A stretch of 64,000 nt of DNA, taken from positions 1,019,656 through 1,083,655 of the forward strand of contig CBDCVK010000010.1 of assembly GCA_965223005.1 (NCBI GenBank). Reading direction: 5' to 3'. Below are positions 8,972 through 49,513 of the stretch, one piece after another (the first letter of the stretch is position 1; every line of letters starts with the position of its first letter). The notes beneath the pieces are model-generated. The model saw nothing but the letters and a program-made list of their open reading frames with translations. It had not been told where the DNA came from and did no database searches. The position numbers were made by a program, and so were the translations under genes. This DNA is from Terriglobia bacterium (GTDB taxonomy: Bacteria > Acidobacteriota > Terriglobia > JAJPHL01 > JAPKYU01).

Positions 8972-9734
8972 CATTCTGGACGCCGACCAGCACACGGATC
9001 TCGAGACCGGGGTGTTTCTGGCGCGGATGGAATGGGATCTGGAGGGGTTCGAGATCCCGCGCGCGCAAATCGCCGCGCGTTTTCAGCCGCTGGCCCAAGA
9101 ACACCAGATACAGTTCGAGGTCCACTTCAGCGATGACGCTCCGAAACTCGCGATCTTCGCCTCCGGGATGCTGCATTGCCTCCAGGATCTGCTGCTCCGG
9201 CACCGGGCCGGCGAGTTCCAGGCCGAGATCGCAATGGTCCTCAGCAATCATCTGGAGGCCAATGCGGTGGCGCAGGAGTTCGGAATCCCGTTCCTTCACT
9301 TCCCCATTACCGCGGCCAGCAAGAAGGAGCAGGAGGCCAGGGAGATCGACGAGCTGCGGGCCAGAGGAATTGACCTGATCGTGCTGGCCCGCTATATGCA
9401 GATTCTGAGCGAGGATTTTGTCGCCGCCTTTCACAACCGGATCATCAATATCCACCATTCCTTTCTTCCGGCCTTTGCGAGGGGCCAAGCCTACCACCAG
9501 GCTTTCCAACGTGGGGTGAAGCTGATCGGAGCCACCTCTCACTACGTGACAATGGATCTGGATGAAGGTCCGATCATTGACCAGGAGGTCGTGCGCGTGA
9601 GCCATCGTGACTCAGTCCAGGATCTGATTCGCAAGGGGAAGGATCTGGAACGAGTGGTTCTGGCCCGCGCAGTGCGCCTGCACCTGGCTCATCGGGTGTT
9701 GACTTACGGGAACAAGACCGTTGTTTTCGACTAA
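8880..9734 (+). CDS. purU: Formyltetrahydrofolate deformylase
   Basis: 284 aa. N-terminal ACT domain (LLVFCPDQKGLVARIS, cf. E. coli PurU ICPDQKGLIARIT) plus a formyl-transferase domain (HHSFLPAF, SHYVT). Confidence 0.85.
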   Translation: MRETATLLVFCPDQKGLVARISGFIFRHGGNILDADQHTDLETGVFLARMEWDLEGFEIPRAQIAARFQPLAQEHQIQFEVHFSDDAPKLAIFASGMLHCLQDLLLRHRAGEFQAEIAMVLSNHLEANAVAQEFGIPFLHFPITAASKKEQEAREIDELRARGIDLIVLARYMQILSEDFVAAFHNRIINIHHSFLPAFARGQAYHQAFQRGVKLIGATSHYVTMDLDEGPIIDQEVVRVSHRDSVQDLIRKGKDLERVVLARAVRLHLAHRVLTYGNKTVVFD

Positions 9735-9842
9735 GCCCCGGGGCCTACCACCCTCCTTAACGCACGGCTGCGGATGATCAGTTACGCCTTGTTTGGTAGC
9801 TTCCTTCCGCTATAAAATAGGGCGCTCCCCGGGGAGGACATT

Positions 9843-11539: not shown

Positions 11540-11642
11540 CCCACCCCGCACCTTGTCAACCAAAGAAATCGGTGGCGCGATCGCTGCCATCAGGCCAGCG
11601 CCTGCTTGCAGCCAAGAGGGTTCAAGAGCAATCAGCGCATTG

Positions 11643-12329
11643 TTACGGCTTGCGGCCGGAGATGGAGGGCGGCCGGCCGCGAAGGGCGTCGTCCAGGCTG
11701 ACTTCGAAATACATCAGCGGCTGTGAGTTGTGGGCCCAGACAAGCTGGGTGAGGTAGAGCTTGGAACCGGACAGCCAGTCCCTACCACTCCCGATCTCGA
11801 AGTAGAAGAAGCCGCTGGCCGTGGACTCCGGCGGCAGCAGGCGCATGTTGAACTCGTGAACCAGCACTTCCATGACTATGTTTGCCCGTGACCCGCCGGG
11901 TAAGCGCGGCAGTGGGTAGGGCACCGTTCGGCGCGGCTGTTTCCCTTTCCCCGTCAGCCGTTGAACCACAACCCCCGCCGGGGTGGGCTCGATCTTCTGC
12001 CGGTCCCTCGTCAGCAATTGCACCAAAAGGTCATCCAGGCGCACCGTCTTGTCCGTCGTGTTGGCAATCACCACCAGCACCGGCAGGATGCCCGCTTTCG
12101 CCAGATTGTGCTTTCCGAAAACCGGCTTGGCTTTCTGGCGGGTCTCGAACGGTTCGGCGGCCGCGATTAACCCCTCGTGCGCGTCGCGTGCCGGATAGGC
12201 CTCCGCGGGCTTGGCACGGAACGCCAAGCGCTCCTTCTCGCCGGCCACAGCGCCACAGGCCCACAGCGCCACTCCCAGCAAGGCAACCCAACCGCGAATC
12301 CTTAGCCTGGGCCGCCGGTGTCGAGTCAT
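11643..12329 (-). CDS. Secreted hypothetical protein
   Basis: The internal Met gives MTRHRRPRLRIRGWVALLGVALWACGAVAG, a signal peptide. No known domain. Confidence 0.4.
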   Translation of the reverse strand: MTRHRRPRLRIRGWVALLGVALWACGAVAGEKERLAFRAKPAEAYPARDAHEGLIAAAEPFETRQKAKPVFGKHNLAKAGILPVLVVIANTTDKTVRLDDLLVQLLTRDRQKIEPTPAGVVVQRLTGKGKQPRRTVPYPLPRLPGGSRANIVMEVLVHEFNMRLLPPESTASGFFYFEIGSGRDWLSGSKLYLTQLVWAHNSQPLMYFEVSLDDALRGRPPSISGRKP

Positions 12330-12453
12330 CAACCAATTATGGGAACGGGACGTTAGTTCAGCAAGATAGAGTTGCTCGGCAAGATATAATGGGGACCGGA
12401 CCGGTAGAACAACCATTTTCGCCAGTTTCCGTTTTACCCTTCGCTCGGAACAG

Positions 12454-13803
12454 ATGTATCTTCTCTACAGTTTCCTGCTGGCCCTGGCTGCCCTGGTGAT
12501 GTTCCCTTACTTTCTGGTGCAGGGCCTGCGCCACGGAAAGTATCTGGGCAGCCTCCGCGCGCGGCTGGGCTGGGTGCCGGAGACGGCCCGCACCCCAGGA
12601 GACGCGCTGTGGCTCCATGCGGTTTCCGTGGGAGAAGTGCTGGCCTGCCAGAGCCTGCTGGCCGGGCTCAGGCGGCGTTTCCCGCAGCGGCCCCTGCTGG
12701 TTTCCACCACCACTGAGACGGGGTTTCGCACGGCGCAGCAGCGACGGGAAACTGGGGCGCTTGAAGCCGATGGCATTTTCTACTGCCCCTTCGATTTTCG
12801 CTTTTCCGTGCGGCGGGTGCTGCGGCGCGTGCGGCCGGCGTTGCTCTTGGTGGCGGAAACCGAGTTCTGGCCAAACCTGTTCCGGGAAGCCTCCAGGAGC
12901 GGAGCTCGAGTGGTTGTGGTGAATGCGCGGATCTCCGATCACTCATTTCCTGGATACCGCCTCTTCCGCCTTTTTGTCCAGAAGGTGTTGAACCAGACGA
13001 CGCTGCTGCTGGCGCAGTCGGAGGTAGATGCCGAACGCCTGCGGCAGCTGGGTGCGGATCCGCCGCGCGTCCGGGTTGCCGGAAACTTGAAATTTGATCG
13101 GGAAGCTGCCGCTCCGCTGCCGCCTTGGCTGGACCGGCAGCTCAGCCGCTGGACTGCGCCGGGGGCTCTGGTAGCCGGCAGCACCGCCGTTGGTGAAGAG
13201 GAAATTGTTCTGGCGGCGTTCCAGCGACTTCGCGCGCAGCGGCCCGCGTTGCGCCTTCTGCTGGCCCCGCGTCGCCCGGAGCGGTTCGAGGAGGTGGCGG
13301 AGTTGATCGAGGCCCGCGGCTTCCGTTTGGCACGCCGCTCGCGGCTCACCTCGGCGCCGGCCGCAGAGCCAGACGCGGAGCCAGATGTGGAGATTGACCC
13401 GGAGGCAGCCGTGCTGCTTTTGGACAGCGTGGGCGAGTTGGGCGCCGCCTATCGGTACGCCACCGTCGCGTTTGTGGGCGGCAGTTTGGTGCCCCACGGC
13501 GGGCAGAATATCCTGGAAGCGGCGCAGTTTGCCCGTCCGGTGGTAGTGGGTCCATACATGCAGAATTTCCGGGACATTACGCACGCATTTCGCGCGGCAG
13601 GCGCGTTGCGGCAGGTCGCTTCGGGCGCCGAATTGTCCCCCGCAATCGAGCAGCTTTTCGCCGATCCCGTTGCCGCGGCGGCGATGGGTCAGGCCGGCCG
13701 CCGGTTGCTGGAGGCCAATCGCGGCGCCACCGAACGGGTGCTCGAGGCTGTGGCCGCGCTGCTGCCAGCGCCGGCTAAGGTGGCCGTGGGGCGGACCTTA
13801 TGA
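12454..13803 (+). CDS. waaA: 3-deoxy-D-manno-octulosonic acid (Kdo) transferase
   Basis: 449 aa with an N-terminal TM anchor, LWLHAVSVGE and the GT-B fold of KdtA. Confidence 0.85.
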   Translation: MYLLYSFLLALAALVMFPYFLVQGLRHGKYLGSLRARLGWVPETARTPGDALWLHAVSVGEVLACQSLLAGLRRRFPQRPLLVSTTTETGFRTAQQRRETGALEADGIFYCPFDFRFSVRRVLRRVRPALLLVAETEFWPNLFREASRSGARVVVVNARISDHSFPGYRLFRLFVQKVLNQTTLLLAQSEVDAERLRQLGADPPRVRVAGNLKFDREAAAPLPPWLDRQLSRWTAPGALVAGSTAVGEEEIVLAAFQRLRAQRPALRLLLAPRRPERFEEVAELIEARGFRLARRSRLTSAPAAEPDAEPDVEIDPEAAVLLLDSVGELGAAYRYATVAFVGGSLVPHGGQNILEAAQFARPVVVGPYMQNFRDITHAFRAAGALRQVASGAELSPAIEQLFADPVAAAAMGQAGRRLLEANRGATERVLEAVAALLPAPAKVAVGRTL

Positions 13804-13819
13804 GCGTGCTGCTGTGGCT

Positions 13820-14863
13820 ATGAGTGTAGTGCTGTGGCCGGCGGCACGTCTGTGGTCGCTCGCCGCGCGCACACGTGTCCGCCTGTACGCTTCGGGCACC
13901 TGGCGCCAGCAACGGCTGGACCGCCCGGTAGTCAGCGTCGGCAACCTCTCGGCAGGCGGAGCGGGGAAGACCCCGTTCGTCATCTGGCTCTTCTCCGCAC
14001 TGGTGGAGCGCGGTCTGAGACCGGCGGTGCTGACGCGCGGCTATCGGCGTCCGGCCGGAGGGGAAACGCTACTGTTCACTCGCGCAGGCCACGGTGCCGC
14101 ATGGCCGCCGGACGCTGTGAGCGCGGGCGACGAAGTACAGGTGATGCTGCGGCATGGGCTGGCACCTGTTGGCGTTGACGGGAACCGCCTCCGGGCCGGA
14201 CGAGCACTGGAAGCCCAGGGCGCAGTGGACGTACACCTGCTCGATGACGGGTTTCAACATCTGGCACTGGGCCGGGACCTAGACATTGTGCTGGTGGACA
14301 GCACCCGCCCACCGTGGGAGGATGACCTGCTACCGGCTGGGCGGCTGCGAGAGTCACCTTCGGCCTTGGGACGTGCTGGAGTTATCGTGTTAACCCGGGT
14401 GCAGGATTGGACGGCGAGAGGGCAGCTGGAAACGCGCCTAAGAGGCGTGGCGCCGCAGGCCGAGATTTACGGGGCGCGCACGCGCCTGACGGCCGACGTT
14501 GGCGCAGCCGAGCCTTCGGTTCCAAGCCTCTCATCTGCGTCCTCGCAGCCTGCTCTGGCGTTTGCGGGTGTAGGCAATCCGAGGGCCTTCTTCGCCGACC
14601 TTTGCTTGGCGGGGTTTCGGGTCGTGGGCACGCAGCCGTTTCGCGACCACCATCGCTACACGGCGCGCGACCTGCGGCGACTCGAGCAGCGCGCCCGCCA
14701 GGTGGGCGCCGAAGCGCTCGTCACCACCGAGAAGGACGCCGCCAATCTGTCCGACTCCTGCCGAAACGGGCTGGAGCTGCCACTGCGGGTCGTGGGAATG
14801 GAGCTGGAGGTGGAACAGGGGGCCGCGCTGGTAGATCGCGTCGCGGGGTTGGTGCGTAAATGA
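13820..14863 (+). CDS. lpxK: Tetraacyldisaccharide 4'-kinase
   Basis: P-loop VVSVGNLSAGGAGKTP. ATG at 13820 lies just after the waaA stop; the track ORF begins 150 nt earlier, inside waaA. Confidence 0.8.
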   Translation: MSVVLWPAARLWSLAARTRVRLYASGTWRQQRLDRPVVSVGNLSAGGAGKTPFVIWLFSALVERGLRPAVLTRGYRRPAGGETLLFTRAGHGAAWPPDAVSAGDEVQVMLRHGLAPVGVDGNRLRAGRALEAQGAVDVHLLDDGFQHLALGRDLDIVLVDSTRPPWEDDLLPAGRLRESPSALGRAGVIVLTRVQDWTARGQLETRLRGVAPQAEIYGARTRLTADVGAAEPSVPSLSSASSQPALAFAGVGNPRAFFADLCLAGFRVVGTQPFRDHHRYTARDLRRLEQRARQVGAEALVTTEKDAANLSDSCRNGLELPLRVVGMELEVEQGAALVDRVAGLVRK

Positions 14864-15921
14864 GCCGGCTGGTCGAAGCGCGGAGAATCCTGGTGCGGGC
14901 CACCAACTGGGTGGGCGATGCGGTGATGACTCTGCCGGCACTGCGCGAGCTGCGCCGAGCGTTGCCGGCTGCCCACATCACCCTGCTGGCCCGGCCCTGG
15001 GTCAGCACCGTCTTCGAGCGAGAAGCTGTCGCTGACCGCCTGCTGCTGTATCCCAGCAATGGAAGCATGGGCTGGCGCCAGACCGCCGTCGCGCTGCGCA
15101 CGGAGCGCTTCGACGCGGCGGTGCTGTTCCAGAACGCTTTCGAAGCCGCTCTGCTGGCCCGCTGGGCGCGGGTTCCGGTCCGCTGCGGCTACGCCCGCGA
15201 CGGCCGGTCCTGGCTGCTGACCCACGCGGTCCCGGTCCCGCGCCAGGACGAGATTCCTGCGCACGAGTGCTACTACTACCTGGAGTTGCTGCGGCGCCTG
15301 AACGTGCTGCCGGAACTGCCGCAGGTCTCCCAGATCCTGCTGGCCCGACTGCCCTCGCGAGAAATTGGCCGCGACAAGCTGGTGAGCTTTGGTCTGCCTG
15401 ACGCCTTTCGCGGTCCAGTGATCGGGATCAATCCGGGAGCCATGTTTGGTACGGCGAAGCGTTGGTTCCCGTCGCGGTTCGCCGCGGTGGGACAGGCCCT
15501 GGCCGCGCAAGGCGCGGCCGTGGTCCTGTTCGGCGCTGCCTCGGAACGCAAGCTGGCTGAGGAAGTGGCCGCCACCGTTGGCCCGGCGGCAGTTTCCACC
15601 GCTGGCCGCACGAGCCTGAGCGAATTTCTCGAGCTGGTGGCAGGCTGCGATCTGTTTCTGACCAACGACACCGGCACCATGCATCTGGCCGCAGCGGCCG
15701 GCGTTCCGGTGCTGGCGATCTTCGGAGCCACGGACGAAGTGGCCACCGCCCCGCTCGGCCCTTGTGTCCGGATCATCAAGAAGCCAGTGCCGTGCAGCCC
15801 CTGCAAGCTGCGCGATTGTCCCATTGACCATCGCTGCATGAGCGGCGTGGAGACCGAGGAGGTGCTGGCTGCCGCGCAGCAGATGCTGGGAGAACCCAGT
15901 CTTCGTCGAGGCCATGCCTAA
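14860..15921 (+). CDS. GT9 ADP-heptose:LPS heptosyltransferase (WaaF-like)
   Basis: 353 aa GT9 fold. 4-nt overlap with lpxK. Confidence 0.7.
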   Translation: MSRLVEARRILVRATNWVGDAVMTLPALRELRRALPAAHITLLARPWVSTVFEREAVADRLLLYPSNGSMGWRQTAVALRTERFDAAVLFQNAFEAALLARWARVPVRCGYARDGRSWLLTHAVPVPRQDEIPAHECYYYLELLRRLNVLPELPQVSQILLARLPSREIGRDKLVSFGLPDAFRGPVIGINPGAMFGTAKRWFPSRFAAVGQALAAQGAAVVLFGAASERKLAEEVAATVGPAAVSTAGRTSLSEFLELVAGCDLFLTNDTGTMHLAAAAGVPVLAIFGATDEVATAPLGPCVRIIKKPVPCSPCKLRDCPIDHRCMSGVETEEVLAAAQQMLGEPSLRRGHA

Positions 15922-15933
15922 TTCACCCTTGCC

Positions 15934-17055
15934 TTGTCCGGGTTCAAAAGGAGCAGCGAACCGTTGAGCCAGGAAAAGCCAAGTACGTATCTGGAGATTC
16001 TCGAGCGCTTCCCCGCACAGACGGTGTTGGTGGTTGGCGATCTGGTGGCCGACGAGTTCGTGCTGGGCGAGATTTCCCGGGTTTCGCGGGAAGCCGCAGT
16101 GCTCATTTTGAAGCACCGGCAGACGCAGATTCTGCCTGGTGGCGGCGCCAACGCGGCGTATAACCTGGCCGATCTCGGGGCCAAGGTGATTCCAGTGGGG
16201 GTGGTTGGCGACGACGACGCCGGGCGGGCGTTGCTGGAGTGTTTTCGCAAGCGCCGCGTGGAAACACGCGGCGTCGTGGTGGCGCGCGAATTGACCACCA
16301 CCACCAAGAGCCGCGTTCTAGCTGGTACAGTGCACGGCAGCCGCCAGCAGGTAGTGAGGATTGACCGCGAGCCCGCGCAGCCGGCCTCCCCGGCCCGGCG
16401 GGCGGAGGTCCAGCGGCGCGCACTGCGCCTGGGGCGCCGGGCAGACGCCGCTCTGGTCTCCGACTACGGCTACGGCGCCACCTCTCCGGAACTGGCCGGT
16501 GCGCTGGGCGCTGCCCTCAATGGCCGTCCGGTGACGATTGATTCGCGCTTCGACCTGCTGAAGTACGCCGGAGCCACCGCGGCCACGCCGAATGAGCCGG
16601 AACTGGAAGAGGCGTTTCACGCGCGCATCGGCGCCGACACGCACAAGCTGGAGCACACGGCGCGAAGCGTGCTGCGCCGGATGCGGCTCGAGGCCCTGCT
16701 GGTTACTCGCGGGCGGCACGGAATGGTGCTGTTTGAGCCGCGCCGCCGCCCGGTGTACATCCCCGTCTGGGGCTCTGATGAGGTTGCGGACGTGACCGGG
16801 GCCGGCGACACGGTGATTGCCACCTTCACCCTGGCCCTGGCCGCCGGCGCCAGCTTTGAGCAGGCGGCGCGGCTGGCGAACTTTGCGGGCGGCATTGTGG
16901 TCATGAAGCGCGGCACGGCCACCGCAACCTTGGAGGAACTTCGAGAGGCAGTCACGAGCAGGGAAGCGCTCGGCCCGGCAGTGCCGGACAGGGGCCGGAC
17001 AGGGGCCGGGCAAGGGCGGGGCAAGGGCCGGGCAAGGGGAGATGAACACAGCTGA
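15934..17055 (+). CDS. hldA: D-glycero-beta-D-manno-heptose-7-phosphate kinase (RfaE domain I) as a stand-alone gene
   Basis: PfkB/ribokinase fold (ADVTGAGDTVIAT). The C-terminal ~25 aa are a Gly/Arg-rich tail encoded by 12-nt tandem repeats. Confidence 0.8.
   Translation: MSGFKRSSEPLSQEKPSTYLEILERFPAQTVLVVGDLVADEFVLGEISRVSREAAVLILKHRQTQILPGGGANAAYNLADLGAKVIPVGVVGDDDAGRALLECFRKRRVETRGVVVARELTTTTKSRVLAGTVHGSRQQVVRIDREPAQPASPARRAEVQRRALRLGRRADAALVSDYGYGATSPELAGALGAALNGRPVTIDSRFDLLKYAGATAATPNEPELEEAFHARIGADTHKLEHTARSVLRRMRLEALLVTRGRHGMVLFEPRRRPVYIPVWGSDEVADVTGAGDTVIATFTLALAAGASFEQAARLANFAGGIVVMKRGTATATLEELREAVTSREALGPAVPDRGRTGAGQGRGKGRARGDEHS
16984..17040. repeat. 12-nt tandem repeat (~5 copies, degenerate) at the hldA/hldC junction
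   Basis: ggccggacaggg / gccggacagggg / ccgggcaagggc / ggggcaagggcc / gggcaagggg. Confidence 0.7.
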
Positions 17056-17536
17056 CAAATTCGTGGGCCGCGTGCGAGCGCGCGAGCTTGCGGACCAGGC
17101 GCGGGGCGACGGGCGCCGCCTGGTGCTGGCCAACGGCTGCTTTGACCTGCTGCACGCGGGCCATGTGCGTTACCTGCAGGGCGCGCGAGCCTGCGGCGAC
17201 CTGCTGGTAGTGGGCATTAACTCCGACCGAAGCGTGCGCGCTCTGAAGGGCGACGGGCGCCCGCTGATGGACCAGCAAGCGCGCGCTCGCATGGTGGCCG
17301 CCCTGTCGGCGGTGGACTGGGTCGTCATCTTCGACGAGCCAGACGTGACCGCGCTGCTGAGGGAACTGCGCCCGCAGGTCCACGCCAAAGGCACCGACTA
17401 CACCTCCGAGACCGTGCCCGAGCGGGAGACGATGCGCGCTCTGGGCGGCGAGGTCGCCATTGTCGGCGACGCCAAGCACCACTCGACCCGCGACCTGATC
17501 AGCCGCATCGTGAAGGCGCAAGACAGTACGCAGTAG
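17042..17536 (+). CDS. hldC: D-glycero-beta-D-manno-heptose-1-phosphate adenylyltransferase (RfaE domain II) as a stand-alone gene
   Basis: 164 aa with the cytidylyltransferase signature NGCFDLLHAGHVRYL. Confidence 0.85.
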   Translation: MNTADKFVGRVRARELADQARGDGRRLVLANGCFDLLHAGHVRYLQGARACGDLLVVGINSDRSVRALKGDGRPLMDQQARARMVAALSAVDWVVIFDEPDVTALLRELRPQVHAKGTDYTSETVPERETMRALGGEVAIVGDAKHHSTRDLISRIVKAQDSTQ

Positions 17537-33180: not shown

Positions 33181-33738
33181 CTAATCCTTGGTGCTACGTT
33201 TGCGAGGCGGCGCGGGTTTTCGCTTGGCCGCCGGAACTTCGCCAACCGACGAGGGTTTTCGCTTGGCTGCCGGAGCTTGGCCAGCCGGCGTGGGTTTTCG
33301 CTTGGCTGCCGGAGCTTGGCCAGCCGGCGCGGGTTTTTGCTCGGCTGCCACGGCTTCGCCAGTAGGCGGTGCTTTTCGCGGTGCTGCCAGAGCAGTGCGG
33401 GCTTGCTCGGCAAGCGTGGCAAAGCCGGGAGCATCCCGAACTGCCAGGTCGGCCAGAATCTTGCGATCCAGTTCCACCCCGGCCAGTTTCAGGCCGTGGA
33501 TGAACTGGTTATACGTAAGTTGATGCTGGCGGGCAGCGGCTCCAATGCGGACGATCCACAAGGAGCGGAATTGCCTCTTCCGCTGGCGGCGGTCCCGGTA
33601 CGCATACCGCAGTCCCTTTTCCACCTGCAGCCGGGCCGCCCTGAAGAGTTTGGACTTCGTGAGGAAATATCCGGAGGCCCGCTCGAGGATCTTCTTGCGC
33701 CTCTGCCGGCGCTTGCTTCCTCTTTTTACTCTGGGCAC
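33181..33738 (-). CDS. rplT: 50S ribosomal protein L20 with a ~65-aa Lys/Ala/Pro-rich C-terminal repeat extension
   Basis: [24 protein letters not shown]... is canonical L20. The tail has about four [13 protein letters not shown] 13-aa repeats, encoded by a 39-nt tandem array. Confidence 0.9.
33213..33370. repeat. 39-nt tandem array (~4 copies) encoding 13-aa repeats in the rplT tail
   Basis: gggttttcgcttggctgccggagcttggccagccggcg(t/c)g repeats with period 39, starting at 33213, 33252, 33291 and 33330. Confidence 0.85.
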
Positions 33739-40736: not shown

Positions 40737-42131
40737 ATGGCACTCTTGAAACCTGACCCAACGTTTTACCCTTCCCCCAAGATGGCGATGCAGGCGCCAG
40801 CTGAAAAGCTGGCCTATCTGGCCCTGCTCAATCCGAAGCACAAAGGCCAGCACGACGCTATCGCGGTGGTGGATGTCGACCCTAAATCATCTAGCTATAG
40901 TCAGGTAGTTGGCCAGGTGGAGATGCCCAAAGCAGGCGATGAGCTTCACCACTTCGGCTGGAACGCCTGCAGCGCCTGCCTGTCCCCCTACGCGCCGCAT
41001 GCCCATCTGGAACGGCGCTACCTCGTCGTTCCGGGCCTTCGCTCCTCCCGGATTCACGTCATTGACACGAAGCCTAACCCCCGGAAGCCGAAGATCGTCA
41101 AAGTGATTGAGCCGGAGACATTGGCGAAGCGCACGGGCTACAGCCGGCCGCACACGGTTCACTGTGGTCCGTGGGGTATCTACGTCAGCGCGCTCGGCTC
41201 ACCGACCGGCGAAGGGCCCGGCGGTGTCTTCATGATGGACCAGGACAACTTCGAGGTGCTGGGAAAGTGGGAGTTGGACCGTGGCCCCCAGTACCTGGCC
41301 TATGATTTCTGGTGGCATCTGGGCTACGACGCCATGGTCACCAGTGAGTGGGGCACGCCGAACATGATCGAACAGGGTGTGAACCCAGAGATCTTGCTCA
41401 AAGGTGGTTATGGCCACAAGCTCCACATCTTTGACTTAAACAAGCGGCGTCATCTGCAGGAGCTGGATTTGGGCGCCGAGTATCAGATGGCCTTGGAGCT
41501 TCGACCGGCCCACGACCCCACCAAAGCTTACGGTTTTCTGGGCGTGGTGGTCTCGCTCAAGGATCTTTCAGCGTCAATCTGGTTGTGGAACCTGGAGAAC
41601 GGCAATTGGGGCGTGCGCAAGGTCATCGAGATCCCGGCCGAGCCAGCCGATCCGGACAAGCTGCCGCCGATGCTGAAAGACTTCAAGGCGGTGCCGCCGT
41701 TGGTGACCGACATCGATCTCTCTCTGGACGATCGCTTTCTCTACGTTTCCTGCTGGGGGACGGGTGAGTTCATCCAGTACGACGTGACGGATCCGTTCAA
41801 CCCCAAGAAGACCGGCTCGGTGCATCTGGGTGGCATCGTGCGGCACGCAGCGCACCCCAAGAAGCCCAAGCAGGCGCTGAATGGCGGGCCGCAGATGGTC
41901 GAAGTGAGTCGCGATGGCCGGCGGATCTACTTCACCAACTCTCTCTATGCTTCATGGGACGAGCAGTTCTATCCGGAAGGCATCCGAAGCTGGATGGTGA
42001 AGCTGAATGCCAAGCCGGAGGGTGGCATGGAGATTGACCCGCGCTTCTTCCTGGAGTTCAAGGAGTTGCGCAGCCATCAGGTCCGCCTGGAAGGCGGCGA
42101 CGCTTCCTCGGACTCTTACTGCTACCCATGA
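40737..42131 (+). CDS. Selenium-binding protein 56 / methanethiol oxidase homologue
   Basis: 464 aa. Collinear with human SELENBP1 along its whole length (VVDVDPKS, DELHHFGWNACSAC, FWWH, DIDLSLDDRFLYVSCW, NGGPQM, YFTNSLY...WD.QFYP). No signal peptide, so predicted cytoplasmic. Confidence 0.85.
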   Translation: MALLKPDPTFYPSPKMAMQAPAEKLAYLALLNPKHKGQHDAIAVVDVDPKSSSYSQVVGQVEMPKAGDELHHFGWNACSACLSPYAPHAHLERRYLVVPGLRSSRIHVIDTKPNPRKPKIVKVIEPETLAKRTGYSRPHTVHCGPWGIYVSALGSPTGEGPGGVFMMDQDNFEVLGKWELDRGPQYLAYDFWWHLGYDAMVTSEWGTPNMIEQGVNPEILLKGGYGHKLHIFDLNKRRHLQELDLGAEYQMALELRPAHDPTKAYGFLGVVVSLKDLSASIWLWNLENGNWGVRKVIEIPAEPADPDKLPPMLKDFKAVPPLVTDIDLSLDDRFLYVSCWGTGEFIQYDVTDPFNPKKTGSVHLGGIVRHAAHPKKPKQALNGGPQMVEVSRDGRRIYFTNSLYASWDEQFYPEGIRSWMVKLNAKPEGGMEIDPRFFLEFKELRSHQVRLEGGDASSDSYCYP

Positions 42132-42781
42132 GCGAGGGGGCGTCGTGGGCCTGGCCCGCCTTGCTCCTGTTGGGCGCCTACCACGGCATTAATCCGGGCA
42201 TGGGCTGGCTGTTCGCCGTCGCACTCGGGATGCAGGAGAAGAGCCGTGGAGCCGTCTGGCGGGCTTTGCCCCCCATTGCCCTGGGTCACGGTGTGGCGAT
42301 CGGTCTGGTGCTGCTGGTCGCCGGGCTGGTCCAGGTGGTCGTGCCGCTGGCTTACCTGAAAATTCCAGTCGCCCTGCTCTTGTTTGCTTTCGGCCTGTAT
42401 CGCTTTTTGCGCGGTCGTCACCCCCGGTGGGGCGGAATGCAGGTCGGGTTCCGCGACCTCACCATCTGGTCCTTTCTGATGGCCTCGGCTCACGGCGCCG
42501 GCTTCATGGTGCTGCCGGTTCTGCTCGCGATGCCTTCCGGAGAGGCCGCCGGACACTCCCTCGGGGGCCATCATCTCGGGGCGAGCGCCTTCCAGGGACC
42601 GTTGACAAGCCTGCTGGCGACGCTGGTTCACACCCTGGGCTATTTGCTTGTCACAGGACTGGTGGCCTGGCTGGTCTATGAGAAGCTCGGGCTGGCTCTG
42701 TTGCGGAAAGCCTGGCTGAATCTCGACCTGATATGGGCCTTCTCACTGATGGCGACCGGCTGCCTGACACTGTTGATCTAG
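42128..42781 (+). CDS. Six-TM membrane protein, possibly a NicO/RcnA-like metal transporter, translationally coupled to the SBP56 gene
   Basis: ATGA overlap with SBP56. Two internal repeats carry HGxNPG and AHGAG motifs, plus a His-rich loop (GHSLGGHHLG). Confidence 0.45.
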   Translation: MSEGASWAWPALLLLGAYHGINPGMGWLFAVALGMQEKSRGAVWRALPPIALGHGVAIGLVLLVAGLVQVVVPLAYLKIPVALLLFAFGLYRFLRGRHPRWGGMQVGFRDLTIWSFLMASAHGAGFMVLPVLLAMPSGEAAGHSLGGHHLGASAFQGPLTSLLATLVHTLGYLLVTGLVAWLVYEKLGLALLRKAWLNLDLIWAFSLMATGCLTLLI

Positions 42782-43347: not shown

Positions 43348-43806
43348 TCAGGAAAGGCGTTTCTGCTGAAAAAAGCTGCGGATCAACTCCGCGCATTCAG
43401 CGCTAAGAACCCCACCGGCGACCTCCACCCGGTGGTTCAGTCGGGTATCATCGGCCACCTGGTAGAGCGACCGAACCGCCCCGGCCTTGGGGTCGTCGCA
43501 GCCGTACACCAACCGTGCCAAGCGCGCCTGCACGGCCGCCCCGGCGCACATAACACACGGTTCGATTGTAACATACAGCGTACATAGGGGCAGGCGGTGG
43601 TTGCCCAGCCGCCGAGCGGCTTCGCGCAGTGCCAGGATTTCGGCGTGCGCCGTGGGATCGCGATCGGTGATGTTGCGGTTGTGGCCGCGTCCCACCACCT
43701 GGTTTTCCGAGACCACCACCGCTCCGACCGGGACCTCTCCTTCCCGCAGGGCGGCTTCGGCTTCCTCCAGCGCCAGGCGCATGAATTGCTCATCCACAGC
43801 TGCCAC
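43348..43806 (-). CDS. tadA: tRNA adenosine(34) deaminase
   Basis: HAEILALREA ... TIEPCVMCAGA, the CDA zinc motifs. Confidence 0.85.
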   Translation of the reverse strand: MAAVDEQFMRLALEEAEAALREGEVPVGAVVVSENQVVGRGHNRNITDRDPTAHAEILALREAARRLGNHRLPLCTLYVTIEPCVMCAGAAVQARLARLVYGCDDPKAGAVRSLYQVADDTRLNHRVEVAGGVLSAECAELIRSFFQQKRLS

Positions 43807-43898: not shown

Positions 43899-45297
43899 TC
43901 AGAGGCGGTATTTCTTGGCGTAGTGGCGGAAGGAGCGGTAGCTCATGTGGAGCAGTTCAGCGGCGCGCGTGCGAACGCCACCGGCGCGCTCGATCGCCGC
44001 TTCAATGTAACGGCGCTCCAGTTGGGTGATGTGCTGTTCCAGGTCCAGACCTGCATCAGGCAGAGAAGGCAGCGGGGAGGGGACGGCGGAGCCGTCGCCG
44101 CTGGCGGCGGCCGCCACCCCTTGCGGCGCGACCCCGGAGACGCGTTCGGGCAGCGTCCACACCGCAACCTCCTCGTGTTTCTCCAGGGCGACGGCACGCT
44201 CCAGGGCGTTTTCCAGTTCCCGCACATTGCCCGGCCAGTCGTACCGTTCCAGGCACTTCATGGCCGGCTCGTCAATCTTGTGGACCGGTTTGTTCATCGC
44301 CCGAGCAAACTTCTTCAGGAAGTGGACGGCCAGCAGGCGGATGTCCTCGCGGCGCTCTCGGAGCGGCGGCAACTCCACCGGGATGACACTGATGCGGTAG
44401 TAGAGGTCCTCACGAAAGGAGCCTTCCTGGACGCGTTGGTGAAGGTCCTTGTTGGTGGCCACGATCAGGCGCACGTCTATCGGCACCTCCTCGCTGGCCC
44501 CGATCGGACGCACCAGCCGCTCCTGCAACACACGCAGCAGCCTCACTTGCATCGCCAGGCTCGTCTCGGCGATCTCGTCCAGAAACAGGGTGCCGGTGTC
44601 AGCGTACTCAAACAGCCCCTTCTTATTGGTGGTGGCTCCGGTGAAGGCGCCTTTGACGTAGCCGAACATCTCGCTCTCGAGCAGTGTTTCGGGGAAGGCG
44701 CCGCAGTTGACCGAGACAAACGGGCGGTCCCAGCGGCCGCTGGCGGCGTGAATGGCGCGGGCCACCAGTTCCTTGCCGGTGCCGCTCTCGCCGGTGATCA
44801 GGATGGTGCTGTTGGTGGGGGCGACGGTGGCCACCAACTCCTTTCAACGCCTTGATGGGCGGGCTCACCCCCAGCAGGCTGTCCAGGCTCTTGCGCAACT
44901 CGCGCTTGAGCGCACGATTTTCCTGCCGCAGGCTGCGATCCTCGACTCCCCGGGCCACAGTGACCCGCACTTCGTCCACCAAGTTGGGAGTCTTGATGAT
45001 GTAGCGGAAGGCGCCCAGGTTCAGGGCTTGCACTGCCGAATCCACCGAGGCATAGGCGGTCACCAGGATGACCAGGGTCTCAGGCTGGGTCTCGCGGACG
45101 TGTTGCAGGACATCCAGGCCGCTGCCCTGCGGCAGTTTGATGTCGGTGATGACGATGTCGTATATGTTGGAGAGCAGTCGGCGATGCGCCATCTCCAGCG
45201 AGGTGACCGTTTCCACCCGGTGCCCCTGCTTGCGCAGGGCGATATCCAGCATTTCGCAGATGGATTTCTCGTCATCCACCACCAGCAGGTGGGCCAT
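43899..45297 (-). pseudogene. NtrC-family sigma54-dependent response regulator (REC + AAA+ + Fis HTH), interrupted by a +1 frameshift
   Basis: The REC domain (MAHLLVVDDEKS...) and the AAA+/HTH part ([21 protein letters not shown]) lie in different frames. The junction is at ...[12 protein letters not shown] | (E)[23 protein letters not shown]. Observed aaaggagttgg versus expected aaagagttgg implies one extra G near 44838-44842. Confidence 0.6.
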
Positions 45298-45300
45298 GGC

Positions 45301-47032
45301 TCACTCGGTTGCGGCGCTCCGCGTATGCGCGAACGGAATGGATCCGGGCTCGGAGGCACGAGGAAGGTTCGGTTTCCCCAGGGTCAGCGGAAGCTCCAGC
45401 TGGAACACCGAACCTCCTTCGGGTACCGATTCGACCCCGACCGTTCCCTGGTGCGCCGTGATGATTTCATACACAATCGCCAACCCCAGGCCGGTGCCAT
45501 TGGTGAAGGCGGACTGGAACGGCTCGAAGATTTTTCCCGGAAGGGCCGGGCTCAGCCCGACACCGGTGTCGTGGAAGCGGATCACGCCATGCCCGTCGGC
45601 GCGGACCGTTTCCACCTTCAGCTTGCCGCCCTCGGGCATGGCCTTCAGCGCGTTGTCGCAGATATTCCAGAAGACCTGCTTGATGGCGTCGAGATCCACC
45701 TGGGCCACCAGCGGCTCGGCCACAAAGACGCGCTCGAAGCGGATGCGGCCCGCGTCGGGATGGTTCTCCAGCAGGACCAGTGTTTCTTCCAGCAGCCCAT
45801 GCAGGTCAGCCGGGCGAAACTCATAGCGGCGTTCCCGGGAATAGCTCAGAAAATCGGAGACGATGCGATCCAGGCGCTGTGACTCCTTCACGACGATCCC
45901 CACCAGTCGCTGCTGTTCACTGGGGAGCGAGCCCAGGGTGGAAAAGACCTTGATGGAGCCGGCGATCGAGGTCAACGGGTTGCGAATCTCGTGGGCGATG
46001 GCGGAAGCCATGCGGCCCAGTGCCGCCATGCGCTCCTTCAGCCGGACCTCTCGCTCCAACCGCTTCAGTTCGGTCAAGTCCTGAAAAAAGTAGACGTGCC
46101 CCTGCGAGGCATGTCCCTGTCCGCTGCTGTCAGGCCAGGTGAGCTCCGACACGCTCACGCGCAGGTATTTCTCCTGCCCGCCGGGAGTGAAGATCTCGAC
46201 CTCCTGTGCCGGGGCATTCAGCGATAGGCGAGCGAATTCCGGCAGCACCTCCGCCAGCGGCCGACCCACGGCGGCAGCAGGCGAGCGCTCCAGGGTCAGC
46301 GCGGCGGCCCGGTTCAACAGCAGTACGCGTCCCCCCAGGCCGGTGGTCACCAGCCCGCCGGCCATGCTGTCAATCACGTTCTCGTTGAACGCCTGCAGGT
46401 TCTCCAGCTCGCCGCTGGCGGCCTGAAGCCGGGTGCCAGTCTTGCGCAGGTTCTCCACCAGACTGCTGGAAAGGTAGGCCATCGCCAGGAAGGCAAACAG
46501 GTTGGTAAAGATTCGCACCTGCAAGTCCTGCAGCTCCGGCGTCATTTCTGAAAGCGCAAGGAGAAAATCCTTCAACTCGTTATACAAGGAGAGTTCCAGC
46601 GTGGCCCCGGCCAGAATGAAGCTGAGGCTGGCGACCAGGTACGTCCCCGCCCTCGACAGCGAGATAGCCGCCAGGATGATCACCAGCGGGTAGAGGAAAA
46701 AGTAGGGGCTGCCCACCCCCCCGCTGAAATGGATGACCGCCGTAATCATGCAGATGTCGCAGATGATCTGCAGGTAGGACTGCATGGTGTAGTCGGTGGA
46801 GAGTTTCAGCAGCAAGCTGAAGAAGATGGTCAGCGCATACCAGAACAGGACAGTGAAGACGAACCATCGGACCGGGATCTGAGCCTGGGTTAACTGCGCC
46901 ACCGCCAGTTGGATGCATCTGAGCCTGGGTTAACTGCGCCACCGCCAGTTGGATGCCGAGCAGGAACGTAATAATGACGATCCGGACGCGGATCAGCCAC
47001 AGCAACCACTGCCTCTGATTTAGCGCTTCCAT
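45301..47032 (-). pseudogene. Membrane sensor histidine kinase (NtrB/AtoS-like, PAS + HisKA + HATPase), disrupted by a 40-bp perfect tandem duplication near its 5' end
   Basis: True N-terminus MEALNQRQWLLWLIRVRIVIITFLLGIQLAVAQLTQAQ (ATG rc 47030-47032) is in a different frame from the body MAQLTQAQIPVRWFVF... Deleting one copy of the 40-nt repeat (46877-46916 = 46917-46956) restores a single ORF. H-box MASAIAHEIRNPL. Confidence 0.6.
46877..46956. repeat. Perfect 40-bp tandem duplication within the histidine-kinase 5' region
   Basis: atctgagcctgggttaactgcgccaccgccagttggatgc occurs twice back to back. Confidence 0.95.
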
Positions 47033-47187: not shown

Positions 47188-47796
47188 ATGAACGCACTAG
47201 CCTCTGTTCACACCCTGGTGGTGAGCCAGAAAAAGGAATGGGGAGAAATTCTCAGTGGTTTTGAGACGAGAAACCGCTACGTGATTCTCTCGGAGCTGGG
47301 GGACGAGCTCTACTTTGCGGCAGAAGAGAAGGGCTCCCTGTTGCTCCGTTTGTTTCTTAAAGCCTTGAGGCCCTTCACCATCATCGTGACGCGCACCGAC
47401 GGCAGCGTTGTCCTTCGACTGGAACGGCCCTTCCGCTTCTACTTCCACAAGATCGACGTGCGTGACGCCCAGGGAAGGTTGTTAGGGACTGTGGACCGCG
47501 AATTTTCTGTGGTGCGGCGGCTCTACCGGGTCTCCGACGCCACCGGAAACGTGACCTGCCAGCTGTACGGACCCATCCTTCACCCGTGGACGTTTCAGAT
47601 CCGTGAGCGGTTCGGTGACATTGAGCAAGAGTCGGGCAAGATCACCAAGAGATGGAGCGGCGCCCTGAAGGAGGTCTTCACCGCTGCGGACAACTTCGCC
47701 ATCGAAATGCCTCCTGGCAAAAGTGTAGAGGCTAAAAGTGTGCTCCTGGGCGCAGTCTTCTTGATCGATTTTATCCACTTCGAGAGGCAGGGATAG
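47188..47796 (+). CDS. Phospholipid-scramblase-family (PLSCR/Tubby-like) protein
   Basis: C-terminal ITKRWSGALKEVFTAADNFAIEMPPG...AVFLIDFIHFE matches the scramblase signature K.W.G...E.FTDADNF.I.FP...FLIDFM.FE. Confidence 0.7.
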   Translation: MNALASVHTLVVSQKKEWGEILSGFETRNRYVILSELGDELYFAAEEKGSLLLRLFLKALRPFTIIVTRTDGSVVLRLERPFRFYFHKIDVRDAQGRLLGTVDREFSVVRRLYRVSDATGNVTCQLYGPILHPWTFQIRERFGDIEQESGKITKRWSGALKEVFTAADNFAIEMPPGKSVEAKSVLLGAVFLIDFIHFERQG

Positions 47797-48007: not shown

Positions 48008-49513
48008 TCAGATCGGAGTGCAGACCGACTTCACTTCGGTGTACGCCTCGAGCACTTCATGTCCCATCTCGCGCCCCCATCCGGATTGTTTGTATCCGCC
48101 GAAAGGCAGCGCCGCATCAAAGATGTTGTAGCAGTTGATCCAAACGGTGCCCGCACGGAGTTGAGAAGCAATGCGGTTTGCCTTTTGAATATCGCGGGTC
48201 CATATGCCTGCCGCTAATCCGTAGATCGTGTCGTTTGCTTGCGCAATGAGTTCATTTGCGTCACGAAACGGAATGGCAGTTACTACCGGGCCGAAGATTT
48301 CCTCTTGGACTACCTTCATTCTTTCGTTGGTATTCACCAACACTGTCGGCTTTACAAAATATCCCTTCTCGCCGAGCCTGCTGCCTCCAACGACTGCCTT
48401 GGCTCCTTCTGAAAATCCGGATTCCAGGTAACCGCAGACCCGATTCAATTGTTCCTCGGAAACCAGGGGGCCCATATCAGTGGAGGACTCCAAACCAGGG
48501 CCGACATGGATTTTTTGGGCTTGTTCGGCGATGCCTTCCACCACCTTGTCAAATGATCCTTTCTCGATGTACAGCCGGGACCCGGCAGAGCAGCACTGAC
48601 CGTGGTTGAAGAATATTGCGCTCGCCGCGCCAGGAATCGCGGTTTGCATATCAGCATCGTGCAACACAACGTTCGGCGATTTGCCGCCAAGTTCCAGAGA
48701 GACCTTCTTGAGATTTCCGGTGGCCGCTTGAATGATCAGCTTTCCTACCTCGGTGGATCCAGTGAACGCAACTTTATCCACTTTCGGATGAGCGGCTATC
48801 GCTGCGCCAGCCGTTTCTCCGTATCCTGGAACGATATTGACAACTCCGTCAGGGAATCCTGCTTCCTGAATCAGTTCGCCGAGTCGAATAGAGGTGAGAG
48901 GCGTCTGCTCGGCCGGCTTCAAGACCACCGTGCAGCCAGCCGCCAGCGCCGGGCCAAGCTTCCAGGCGGCCATCAAGAGCGGGAAATTCCATGGGATGAT
49001 CTGTCCAACAACCCCCACCGGCTCGCGCAGGGTATATGCGAGGTATTTCACGCCGGGGGTGTAGGGGACAGAAATTGGAATCGTATTTCCTTCGATCTTT
49101 GTCGCCCACCCGGCCATATAGCGAAATAGGTCGACCGCAAGTGGTACGTCGGCGGCGCGGGCAACTTTGAGCGGCTTGCCATTGTCCAGAGACTCGAGTT
49201 GAGCGAACTCTTCCAGATTCTTTTCTAGGAGATCAGCGAGCTTCCAAATGAGACAGCCGCGCTCCGAGGCAGTGAGCCTTGACCACGGCCCGGTGTCAAA
49301 TGCAGCCCGGGCCGAGTTAACTGCGCGATCGATATCCTCTCGGTCTCCCTCGGCAACCTGGGAAAGAACTTCTCCGGTCGCCGGATTATAGGTTGCAAAT
49401 GTCTTTCCCGACGCAGATTGCACCCACTTTCCATTGATGAGCATCTTTTGAGTTGTTGAAACAAAGCGGGTTACCTTGTCATCCAACTTATGGGTTTGCG
49501 TGGCAGTGGCCAT
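48008..49513 (-). CDS. NAD(P)-dependent aldehyde dehydrogenase
   Basis: 501 aa with LELGGKSP, catalytic Cys GQCCSAGSR and EEIFGPV. Confidence 0.9.
   Translation of the reverse strand: MATATQTHKLDDKVTRFVSTTQKMLINGKWVQSASGKTFATYNPATGEVLSQVAEGDREDIDRAVNSARAAFDTGPWSRLTASERGCLIWKLADLLEKNLEEFAQLESLDNGKPLKVARAADVPLAVDLFRYMAGWATKIEGNTIPISVPYTPGVKYLAYTLREPVGVVGQIIPWNFPLLMAAWKLGPALAAGCTVVLKPAEQTPLTSIRLGELIQEAGFPDGVVNIVPGYGETAGAAIAAHPKVDKVAFTGSTEVGKLIIQAATGNLKKVSLELGGKSPNVVLHDADMQTAIPGAASAIFFNHGQCCSAGSRLYIEKGSFDKVVEGIAEQAQKIHVGPGLESSTDMGPLVSEEQLNRVCGYLESGFSEGAKAVVGGSRLGEKGYFVKPTVLVNTNERMKVVQEEIFGPVVTAIPFRDANELIAQANDTIYGLAAGIWTRDIQKANRIASQLRAGTVWINCYNIFDAALPFGGYKQSGWGREMGHEVLEAYTEVKSVCTPI

Follow-up and report, generated by a model that had tools for sequence, protein, structure and literature searches.

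Two described two-component systems stand closest to the locus reported here. In PilS-PilR, known from Pseudomonas aeruginosa, Geobacter and Myxococcus, a sensor kinase and an adjacent response regulator exert sigma54-dependent control over the major type IV pilin, and in NtrB-NtrC (GlnL-GlnG), which governs nitrogen regulation, a regulator of the NtrC superfamily is paired with a cytoplasmic kinase. Mutations in genes of the first kind have been recovered under phage selection in P. aeruginosa, where several independent pilR and pilS mutations were found, comprising small indels, frameshifts and short tandem duplications, with the duplications being the reversible class (PMC13170266). Here, we describe a PilS/PilR-like gene pair in a stretch of 64,000 nucleotides from a Terriglobia bacterium (hereafter, the window), in which both the kinase and the regulator gene are disrupted, the former by a 40-nt tandem duplication and the latter by a +1 frameshift. 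We consider it likely that these are two genuine loss-of-function mutations, and that they belong to a recent, recurrent and otherwise ordinary decay of this gene pair across sister lineages.

As found, the kinase gene consists of two open reading frames (ORFs), one of 150 aa (46580-47032) and one of 533 aa (45301-46902). The cause, as reported in an initial annotation of the window, is a 40-nt unit (GCATCCAACTGGCGGTGGCGCAGTTAACCCAGGCTCAGAT on the gene strand) that is present twice, head to tail, in copies that are 100% identical (46877-46956; Table 1). The duplication begins within codon 26 of the ORF starting at ATG 47032, and deleting one copy restores a single 563-aa ORF (MEALNQ...AVAQLTQAQIPVRWFVF...). 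Tandem Repeats Finder recovers it with a period of 40, 2.0 copies and a 100% match and gives no other perfect long tandem repeat for the window. The 40-mer has no further match there at up to 3 mismatches (0 expected by chance). Neither junction shows microhomology (flanks CTCG/GCATCC and CAGAT/CCCGGT, with the slash at the junction). The first membrane helix of the kinase is highly conserved in our homologue alignment (A1), and the duplication truncates the protein after it; the 533-aa ORF lacks this helix and would start at a GTG that has no recognisable ribosome-binding sequence.

The regulator gene, whose start is 4 nt past the kinase stop codon, is likewise found as two ORFs, of 224 aa (44623-45297) and 312 aa (43899-44837), and deleting one base in TTGAAAGGAG (44838-44847) restores a 465-aa ORF. 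The initial annotation had described an extra G exactly at the linker between the receiver (REC) and AAA+ domains. The frameshift and its repair by removal of one base are borne out, but the base is probably not a G, and the site is inside the AAA+ domain, about 10 residues into Sigma54_activat, for which the Pfam match begins at residue 142. All five aligned relatives keep AAGGAG (Lys-Glu), reading CT-AAAGGAG or TT-GAAGGAG, and because this motif is ancestral, we place the extra base probably within TTGAAAG (44842-44845) and not at the G of the GG. The lesion lies outside any repeat tract, in a local context of just A3/G2.

Table 1. Features of the disrupted operon and its immediate neighbours (positions are those of the window).
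Feature	Position	Strand	Remarks
PilS-like sensor histidine kinase gene, disrupted	45301..47032	(-)	563 aa once one 40-nt copy is removed
PilR-like sigma54-dependent response regulator gene, disrupted	43899..45297	(-)	465 aa when repaired
Duplication copy 1	46917..46956	(-)	In or just past predicted transmembrane helix 1, codons 26-39
Duplication copy 2	46877..46916	(-)	
+1 insertion site in the regulator gene	44841..44845	(-)	TTGAAAGGAG in the window; CTAAAGGAG or TTGAAGGAG in relatives
tadA-like deaminase gene	43348..43806	(-)	Intact downstream neighbour; position kept in all close relatives
Scramblase-family gene	47188..47796	(+)	Intact, divergent upstream neighbour in the window

When repaired, the kinase contains a 6TM_PilS domain (PF25323) at residues 4-185, scoring 42.9 bits against a Pfam cutoff of 27, together with PAS (PF00989), HisKA (PF00512) and HATPase_c (PF02518) domains, and its H-box, AHEIRNPL, is invariant in the homologue alignment. 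The repaired regulator has the Pfam domains Response_reg (the REC domain, with D52), Sigma54_activat (PF00158, 233.9 bits), AAA_lid_14 and HTH_8 (PF02954), with a coiled-coil linker between REC and the AAA+ sigma54-interaction domain. It has a Walker A motif (GESGTGKE), a GAFTGA sigma54-contact loop and a Fis-type helix-turn-helix at its C-terminal end, and it conforms to the NtrC superfamily only without the extra base. All NCBIfam equivalog cutoffs are missed by the pair: the NtrC model TIGR01818 scores 400.3 bits over the full regulator length (cutoff 558.6), NF008176, by which NtrB/NtrC membership was judged, scores 318 (cutoff 620), and the AtoC and AtoS models score 456 (cutoff 714) and 249 bits (cutoff 646), respectively. 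The AtoS/AtoC and ZraS/ZraR models score level with or above those for NtrB/NtrC and also stay under their cutoffs. Homologues of the pair are labelled PilS and PilR by the Joint Genome Institute (JGI). Because of the six-helix PilS domain, the failure to reach any equivalog cutoff and the JGI names of the homologues, the pair is, by its predicted domain architecture, PilS/PilR-like and not NtrB/NtrC. The initial assignment to an NtrB/NtrC-type sigma54 system is accordingly correct at the broad level of the NtrC superfamily but not at that of the architecture. The pair shares with PilS-PilR the same kinase and adjacent regulator domains, whereas, in contrast to NtrB-NtrC, the window kinase is an integral membrane protein of six predicted helices and no glnA or PII gene is adjacent.

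The regulator lesion is found in more than one assembly. Its exact 224-aa frameshift product is encoded on two contigs, that of the window (1.67 Mb) and one of 3.13 Mb (L002 and L087; hereafter, the sister assembly). Over 20.7 kb of alignment, the two differ by 3 single-nucleotide polymorphisms and by no indel besides the 40-nt duplication, and the 16.5 kb between the aligned pieces is of equal length in both. The sister assembly has the same +1 in the regulator gene but only one copy of the 40-nt unit. Because these separately built consensuses agree at every homopolymer, the indel error must be very low in both, and because the +1 is common to both of these low-error assemblies, it is almost certainly real. 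Judged as a pseudogene, the regulator is intact in the relatives L001 and L004 and has its lesion repeated in the sister assembly; the kinase is disrupted in the window, and its disruption is not reproduced in the second assembly. The duplication occurs in none of the other relatives either. Every one of them has a single copy of the unit, no pre-existing repeat tract is seen at the site in any relative, and none of the 86 loci fetched contains the duplication junction. Private to the window, the duplication would be either a very recent mutation or an artefact. General sequencing noise had been thought unlikely in the initial annotation on the grounds that other genes in the window are intact, and this holds for the genes tested: no break is seen in FtsA, FtsZ, LpxK, the cox genes, thrS or any other gene checked, in addition to the second assembly having the same regulator lesion. 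Codon-usage tiling of the window revealed no further split gene, with the hldA/hldC junction as a possible exception. Four adjacent ORF pairs considered as further split genes (GntR/formyltransferase, FtsA/FtsZ, heptosyltransferase/PEMT and PfkB/cytidylyltransferase) are separate genes.

Comparison with orthologues demonstrates that the split organization is not native. Both genes are intact and unsplit in L001, L004, L006 and L007, whose kinases are 96%, 88%, 70% and 69% identical in amino acids to that of the window, respectively, and the kinase is matched by intact, unsplit genes in dozens of other Terriglobia loci. Five other close lineages, however, have different lesions in the two genes. 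In L003, the regulator gene has lost 11 nt in the receiver domain and gained 2 nt in the AAA+ domain, scrambling the frame across residues 27-243. In the nearly identical L081 and L082, the kinase gene has lost 1 nt and the regulator gene is interrupted, inside its AAA+ domain, by a 2.2-kb insertion (12372-14555 in L081, 5935-8155 in L082/L005). It contains genes for a transposase of the IS1595 family and a protein with a SocA_Panacea domain as well as an 84-aa ORF, and CCAATAAGG, a short sequence, occurs on either side. The same element is present in two separately produced assemblies, a large-contig one of metaMDBG style (L081, an 811-kb ENA contig) and a MAG (L082, a 9.3-kb 'Langseth_Bin' contig). 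P0005 and P0135 have the kinase frameshift of L081 plus an internal deletion. The kinase of L080 has gained 153 nt, in frame, within its membrane domain, and this insertion looks like part of an integrase (rve); that of L084 has a +1 at codon 131; and that of L085 and L086, from two samples, has deletions of 5 nt and approximately 102 nt. A further locus, L083, with frameshifts in the C-terminal part of the kinase, the regulator and tadA, was rejected as an independent case and left out of the lesion counts, as its five 1-nt indels all lie in short C/G runs close to where the contig stops.

Lesions are concentrated in the operon. Across six lineages, we count 7 disruptive events in 18.5 kb of kinase and regulator sequence and 0 in 42.3 kb of flanking genes (cox1-4, aldehyde dehydrogenase, biotin carboxylase, SDR, VWA, TPR, STAS, tadA and thrS) from the same lineages (P ~2e-4 under a uniform rate). 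Beyond the operon, an SBP56 gene, a gene for a 217-aa membrane protein and the scramblase gene are broken in some lineages. This distribution fits a selective filtering of real mutations and not random error. Taken with the intact orthologues, the repeated regulator lesion and the different lesions in sister lineages, it bears out the proposal of the initial annotation that the whole signalling module has been inactivated.

Pairwise comparisons of the window with five to six relatives give a ratio of nonsynonymous to synonymous substitution (dN/dS) of 0.12-0.23 in the kinase gene and 0.13-0.18 in the regulator gene, at a synonymous divergence (dS) of ~0.08-0.13. Both sets of values are covered by the range of the neighbouring genes (0.04-0.48), and as they are no higher than those of the neighbours, we rejected a long-standing relaxation of selection. 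The knock-outs appear to be recent because purifying selection acted on both genes through most of this divergence. Since the regulator lesion is common to two near-identical assemblies and the duplication is private to one, we infer that loss of the regulator came first. A single inserted nucleotide, close to where the AAA+ domain begins, would have killed the regulator, leaving the kinase without a partner and with no remaining function, and the kinase of the window's sub-lineage would then have gained the 40-nt tandem duplication, which shifts the frame past transmembrane helix 1. As several sister lineages have also had the operon broken, in recent and independent events, the module may be dispensable or costly and lost by mutational decay. 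Such dispensability could have come about through relaxed selection in a host-associated niche or through selection against pili.

Could the lesions instead be errors? That both are, and that the organism has an intact system, is extremely improbable. The data are metagenome assemblies, and the contig end in L083 shows that clusters of probable homopolymer errors do occur in such data, but the regulator +1 is on two separate contigs, which otherwise match wherever an indel could have arisen, in a context of no more than A3/G2, and no other gene is broken in the 64-kb window. A comparable lesion pair in another lineage is moreover common to two separately produced assemblies. The suggestion in the initial annotation of two local assembly errors is thereby contradicted for the regulator and could apply to the duplication alone. 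In this second form, where the regulator frameshift is real, the duplication stems from faulty assembly or consensus calling or from a promoted minority variant and the kinase is intact in the organism, the explanation is unlikely, though not negligibly so. It would account for the single copy in the near-identical sister assembly, for a junction seen in 0/86 fetched loci, for the lack of junction microhomology and for a duplication arising where related contigs have a coverage of only ~17-31x, as judged from contig names. On the other hand, the two assemblies have no other indel disagreement over 20.7 kb and the same spacing over 16.5 kb more, and because there is no other indel disagreement between them, their indel error rate must be very low. 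A perfect 40-nt duplication is also, to our knowledge, not a usual long-read error type. A second lesion in an already useless kinase is a prediction of neutral decay, and the kinases of other lineages contain comparable multi-nucleotide lesions.

Two explanations ascribe a function to the lesions. The initial annotation raised phase-variable switching. In that case, the duplication would keep the module OFF until a copy is lost through slipped-strand mispairing. Perfect tandem duplications can indeed revert, and the sister assembly shows the single-copy state; in P. aeruginosa pilD, a 12-nt duplication selected by a pilus-specific phage reverted readily, and a recoded version did not (PMC13170266). 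Here, however, loss of a copy cannot restore signalling because the partner regulator is frameshifted in both assemblies, at a site outside any repeat tract. Exactly one copy is found in all relatives, and a single duplication event does not amount to a contingency locus. Other lineages have furthermore inactivated the operon irreversibly, by an insertion sequence (IS) and by deletions, and switching is therefore highly improbable. The alternative of a rewired regulator, where the split yields a stand-alone receiver and a receiver-less, constitutive AAA+/helix-turn-helix (HTH) activator of sigma54 that has no need of the kinase, fares little better, and we regard it as very unlikely. The 312-aa ORF retains the Walker A and GAFTGA motifs, the lid and the HTH, AAGGAG is immediately upstream of the candidate starts TTG 44837 and GTG 44834, and a kinase made dispensable would fit. 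The linker LRQENRALKRELRK is also similar to the coiled-coil linkers of NtrC1/DctD-class regulators, which are under negative control and become active when the receiver is removed, and by analogy the same might apply here. In the 312-aa ORF, however, ~12 residues are missing from the first AAA+ helix, the Shine-Dalgarno-like sequence is poorly spaced at 0-3 nt from the start codon, and AAGGAG is no more than the ancestral pair of Lys-Glu codons found in all relatives. In sister lineages, it is the AAA+ domain itself that is destroyed, by the IS insertion in L081 and the scrambled frame of residues 27-243 in L003, which points to loss and not to gain.

The possible target of the system is suggested by distant Terriglobia. 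In L037 and L052, the only loci among 84 sources to give a prepilin motif, the homologous pair lies directly upstream of prepilin genes (N_methyl, PF07963), as might be expected of PilS-PilR. These genes are preceded by TGGAACGCCAGTTGCT and TGGCAGGTAGTTTGCG, each 1 mismatch from the -24/-12 sigma54 consensus, with promoter cores of TGGAAC-N5-TTGCT in L037 and TGGCAG-N5-TTGCG in L052. From these two loci, the domain architecture and the JGI names of the homologues, we infer a PilSR-type role in pilin control for the window pair.

Several observations weigh against genuine, recent decay of a pilin-controlling system. Unlike in PilS-PilR, the neighbours of the window pair are a scramblase and a tadA gene, with no pilin gene or recognisable sigma54 promoter within the 64 kb and no curated equivalog model reached. 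A motif search found no prepilin motif anywhere in the window. The sigma54 promoters that the initial annotation had proposed to seek near the operon did not materialize, as a scan of the window for TGGCAC-N5-TTGCW at up to 2 mismatches gave 36 matches against 36.4 expected and none near the operon. Only one assembly has the 40-nt duplication, whose junctions lack microhomology, and the window and sister assemblies, though separate contigs, may come from the same sample. Some lesions in related assemblies are probably errors: the L083 indels (11600-15430; ctg361924_31x_l) are all within ~4.3 kb of the contig end, where together they disrupt the kinase tail, the regulator, tadA and SBP56. Compared with L080, the 10 kb ahead of them is free of indels. 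Faulty polishing is the probable source, making this locus a caution for pseudogene counts in such assemblies. In addition, the kinase is full length in 10/15 members of the 90%-identity cluster to which the window belongs, and there are 15 full-length regulator sequences in four clusters that are 95-97% identical. Because most sequences of the species cluster keep both genes intact, dispensability is a tentative reading. A last point concerns the habitat. The lineage may be sponge-associated, a suggestion that comes from the name of a single related metagenome-assembled genome (MAG).

The closest genome records are Terriglobia MAGs, and the contigs of the nearest relatives belong to very large ENA assemblies with names such as ctg836657_25x_c, which we take to be the naming style of the HiFi assembler metaMDBG. 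This assembler has been used for sponge-associated metagenomes (PMC12648040). The close relative 'Langseth_Bin_00166' (JAKZXP010000160.1) is tied by its name to the Illumina/MEGAHIT metagenome of Arctic Geodia sponge grounds (PMC8826442). As in recently host-restricted bacteria, where pseudogenes and IS expansion are seen, lineage-specific lesions are scattered over this two-component system, SBP56, the 217-aa membrane protein, the scramblase and a carbon monoxide (CO) dehydrogenase subunit, housekeeping genes are spared and transposases are frequent in related loci. Unlike in such bacteria, no genome reduction is visible, with related contigs reaching 4.9 Mb, and a host association is suggested by the one MAG name and the sponge study (PMC8826442).

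The repeated knock-outs in co-existing strains of one Terriglobia species could also be adaptive and not neutral, which we hold to be rather unlikely. One possibility is that shutdown of the pilin could allow escape from pilus-specific phages or host recognition, with the duplication as a reversible route. If true, the pattern would match, in a natural population, the pilS/pilR/pilD mutations selected by phage in P. aeruginosa, where small indels, frameshifts and short tandem duplications likewise inactivate pilus-regulation genes. The P. aeruginosa case differs in having laboratory selection, a known phage and a measured phenotype, whereas here there are environmental assemblies only, and both partners are broken.

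Other genes of the window and its relatives also vary. The SBP56 selenium-binding protein family gene (40737-42131) and the 217-aa membrane protein gene (42128-42781) are intact in the window, and they are broken in L003, L080, L081 and L085 and in L003 and L081, respectively. Their dS of 0.37-0.53 to lineages with broken copies is unusually high, and the two are further cases of gene decay in the same population. In L001, a 4.93-Mb circular relative, the scramblase homologue (9212-9819) is frameshifted into pieces of 121 and 81 aa, and in L081, a DDE_Tnp_1 transposase lies inside the gene for the large subunit of CO dehydrogenase. The aldehyde dehydrogenase gene of the window (48008-49513, minus strand) has a GC content at third codon positions of 0.59 versus 0.70-0.86 in its neighbours and a dS to relatives of ~0.017 versus ~0.08-0.1 in flanking genes. 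At its position, L001, L084 and L085 have a CO-dehydrogenase-like cluster (coxMSL-type) and no aldehyde dehydrogenase in the fetched stretch, while L081 has both; the locus has the appearance of a variable island holding a gene that spread recently.

Two further repeats were observed in the window. At 16983-17038, an 11-nt tandem repeat of ~5 units (GCCGGACAGGG-like) lies in the tail of a PfkB-type heptose kinase ORF (15934-17055, plus strand), which is separate from the following cytidylyltransferase ORF (17042-17536, plus strand) and overlaps it by 14 nt with 5 repeat units. One unit more or two fewer would give a fused, bifunctional HldE-like protein of 526-537 aa. The sister assembly has the same layout, with no indel relative to the window, and the layout could reflect either a splitting of hldE through the repeat or two naturally separate genes. 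At 33208-33393, a 39-nt (13-codon) tandem repeat of ~4 copies, 87% matching, is found in overlapping ORFs on both strands.

For the disrupted pair, automated annotation would call four fragments (150, 533, 224 and ~256-312 aa) and may count as working a system that this strain would lack. The process is a known one, a recent parallel pseudogenization of a regulatory module, and involves no new mechanism. Close relatives show at least six separate breakages of the same pair, with housekeeping neighbours untouched, and this parallel breakage marks the system as newly dispensable or disadvantageous in its habitat. If the system controls type IV pili, to which its architecture and the two distant loci point, this would represent a parallel regulatory loss in an uncultured, possibly sponge-associated lineage of Acidobacteriota.

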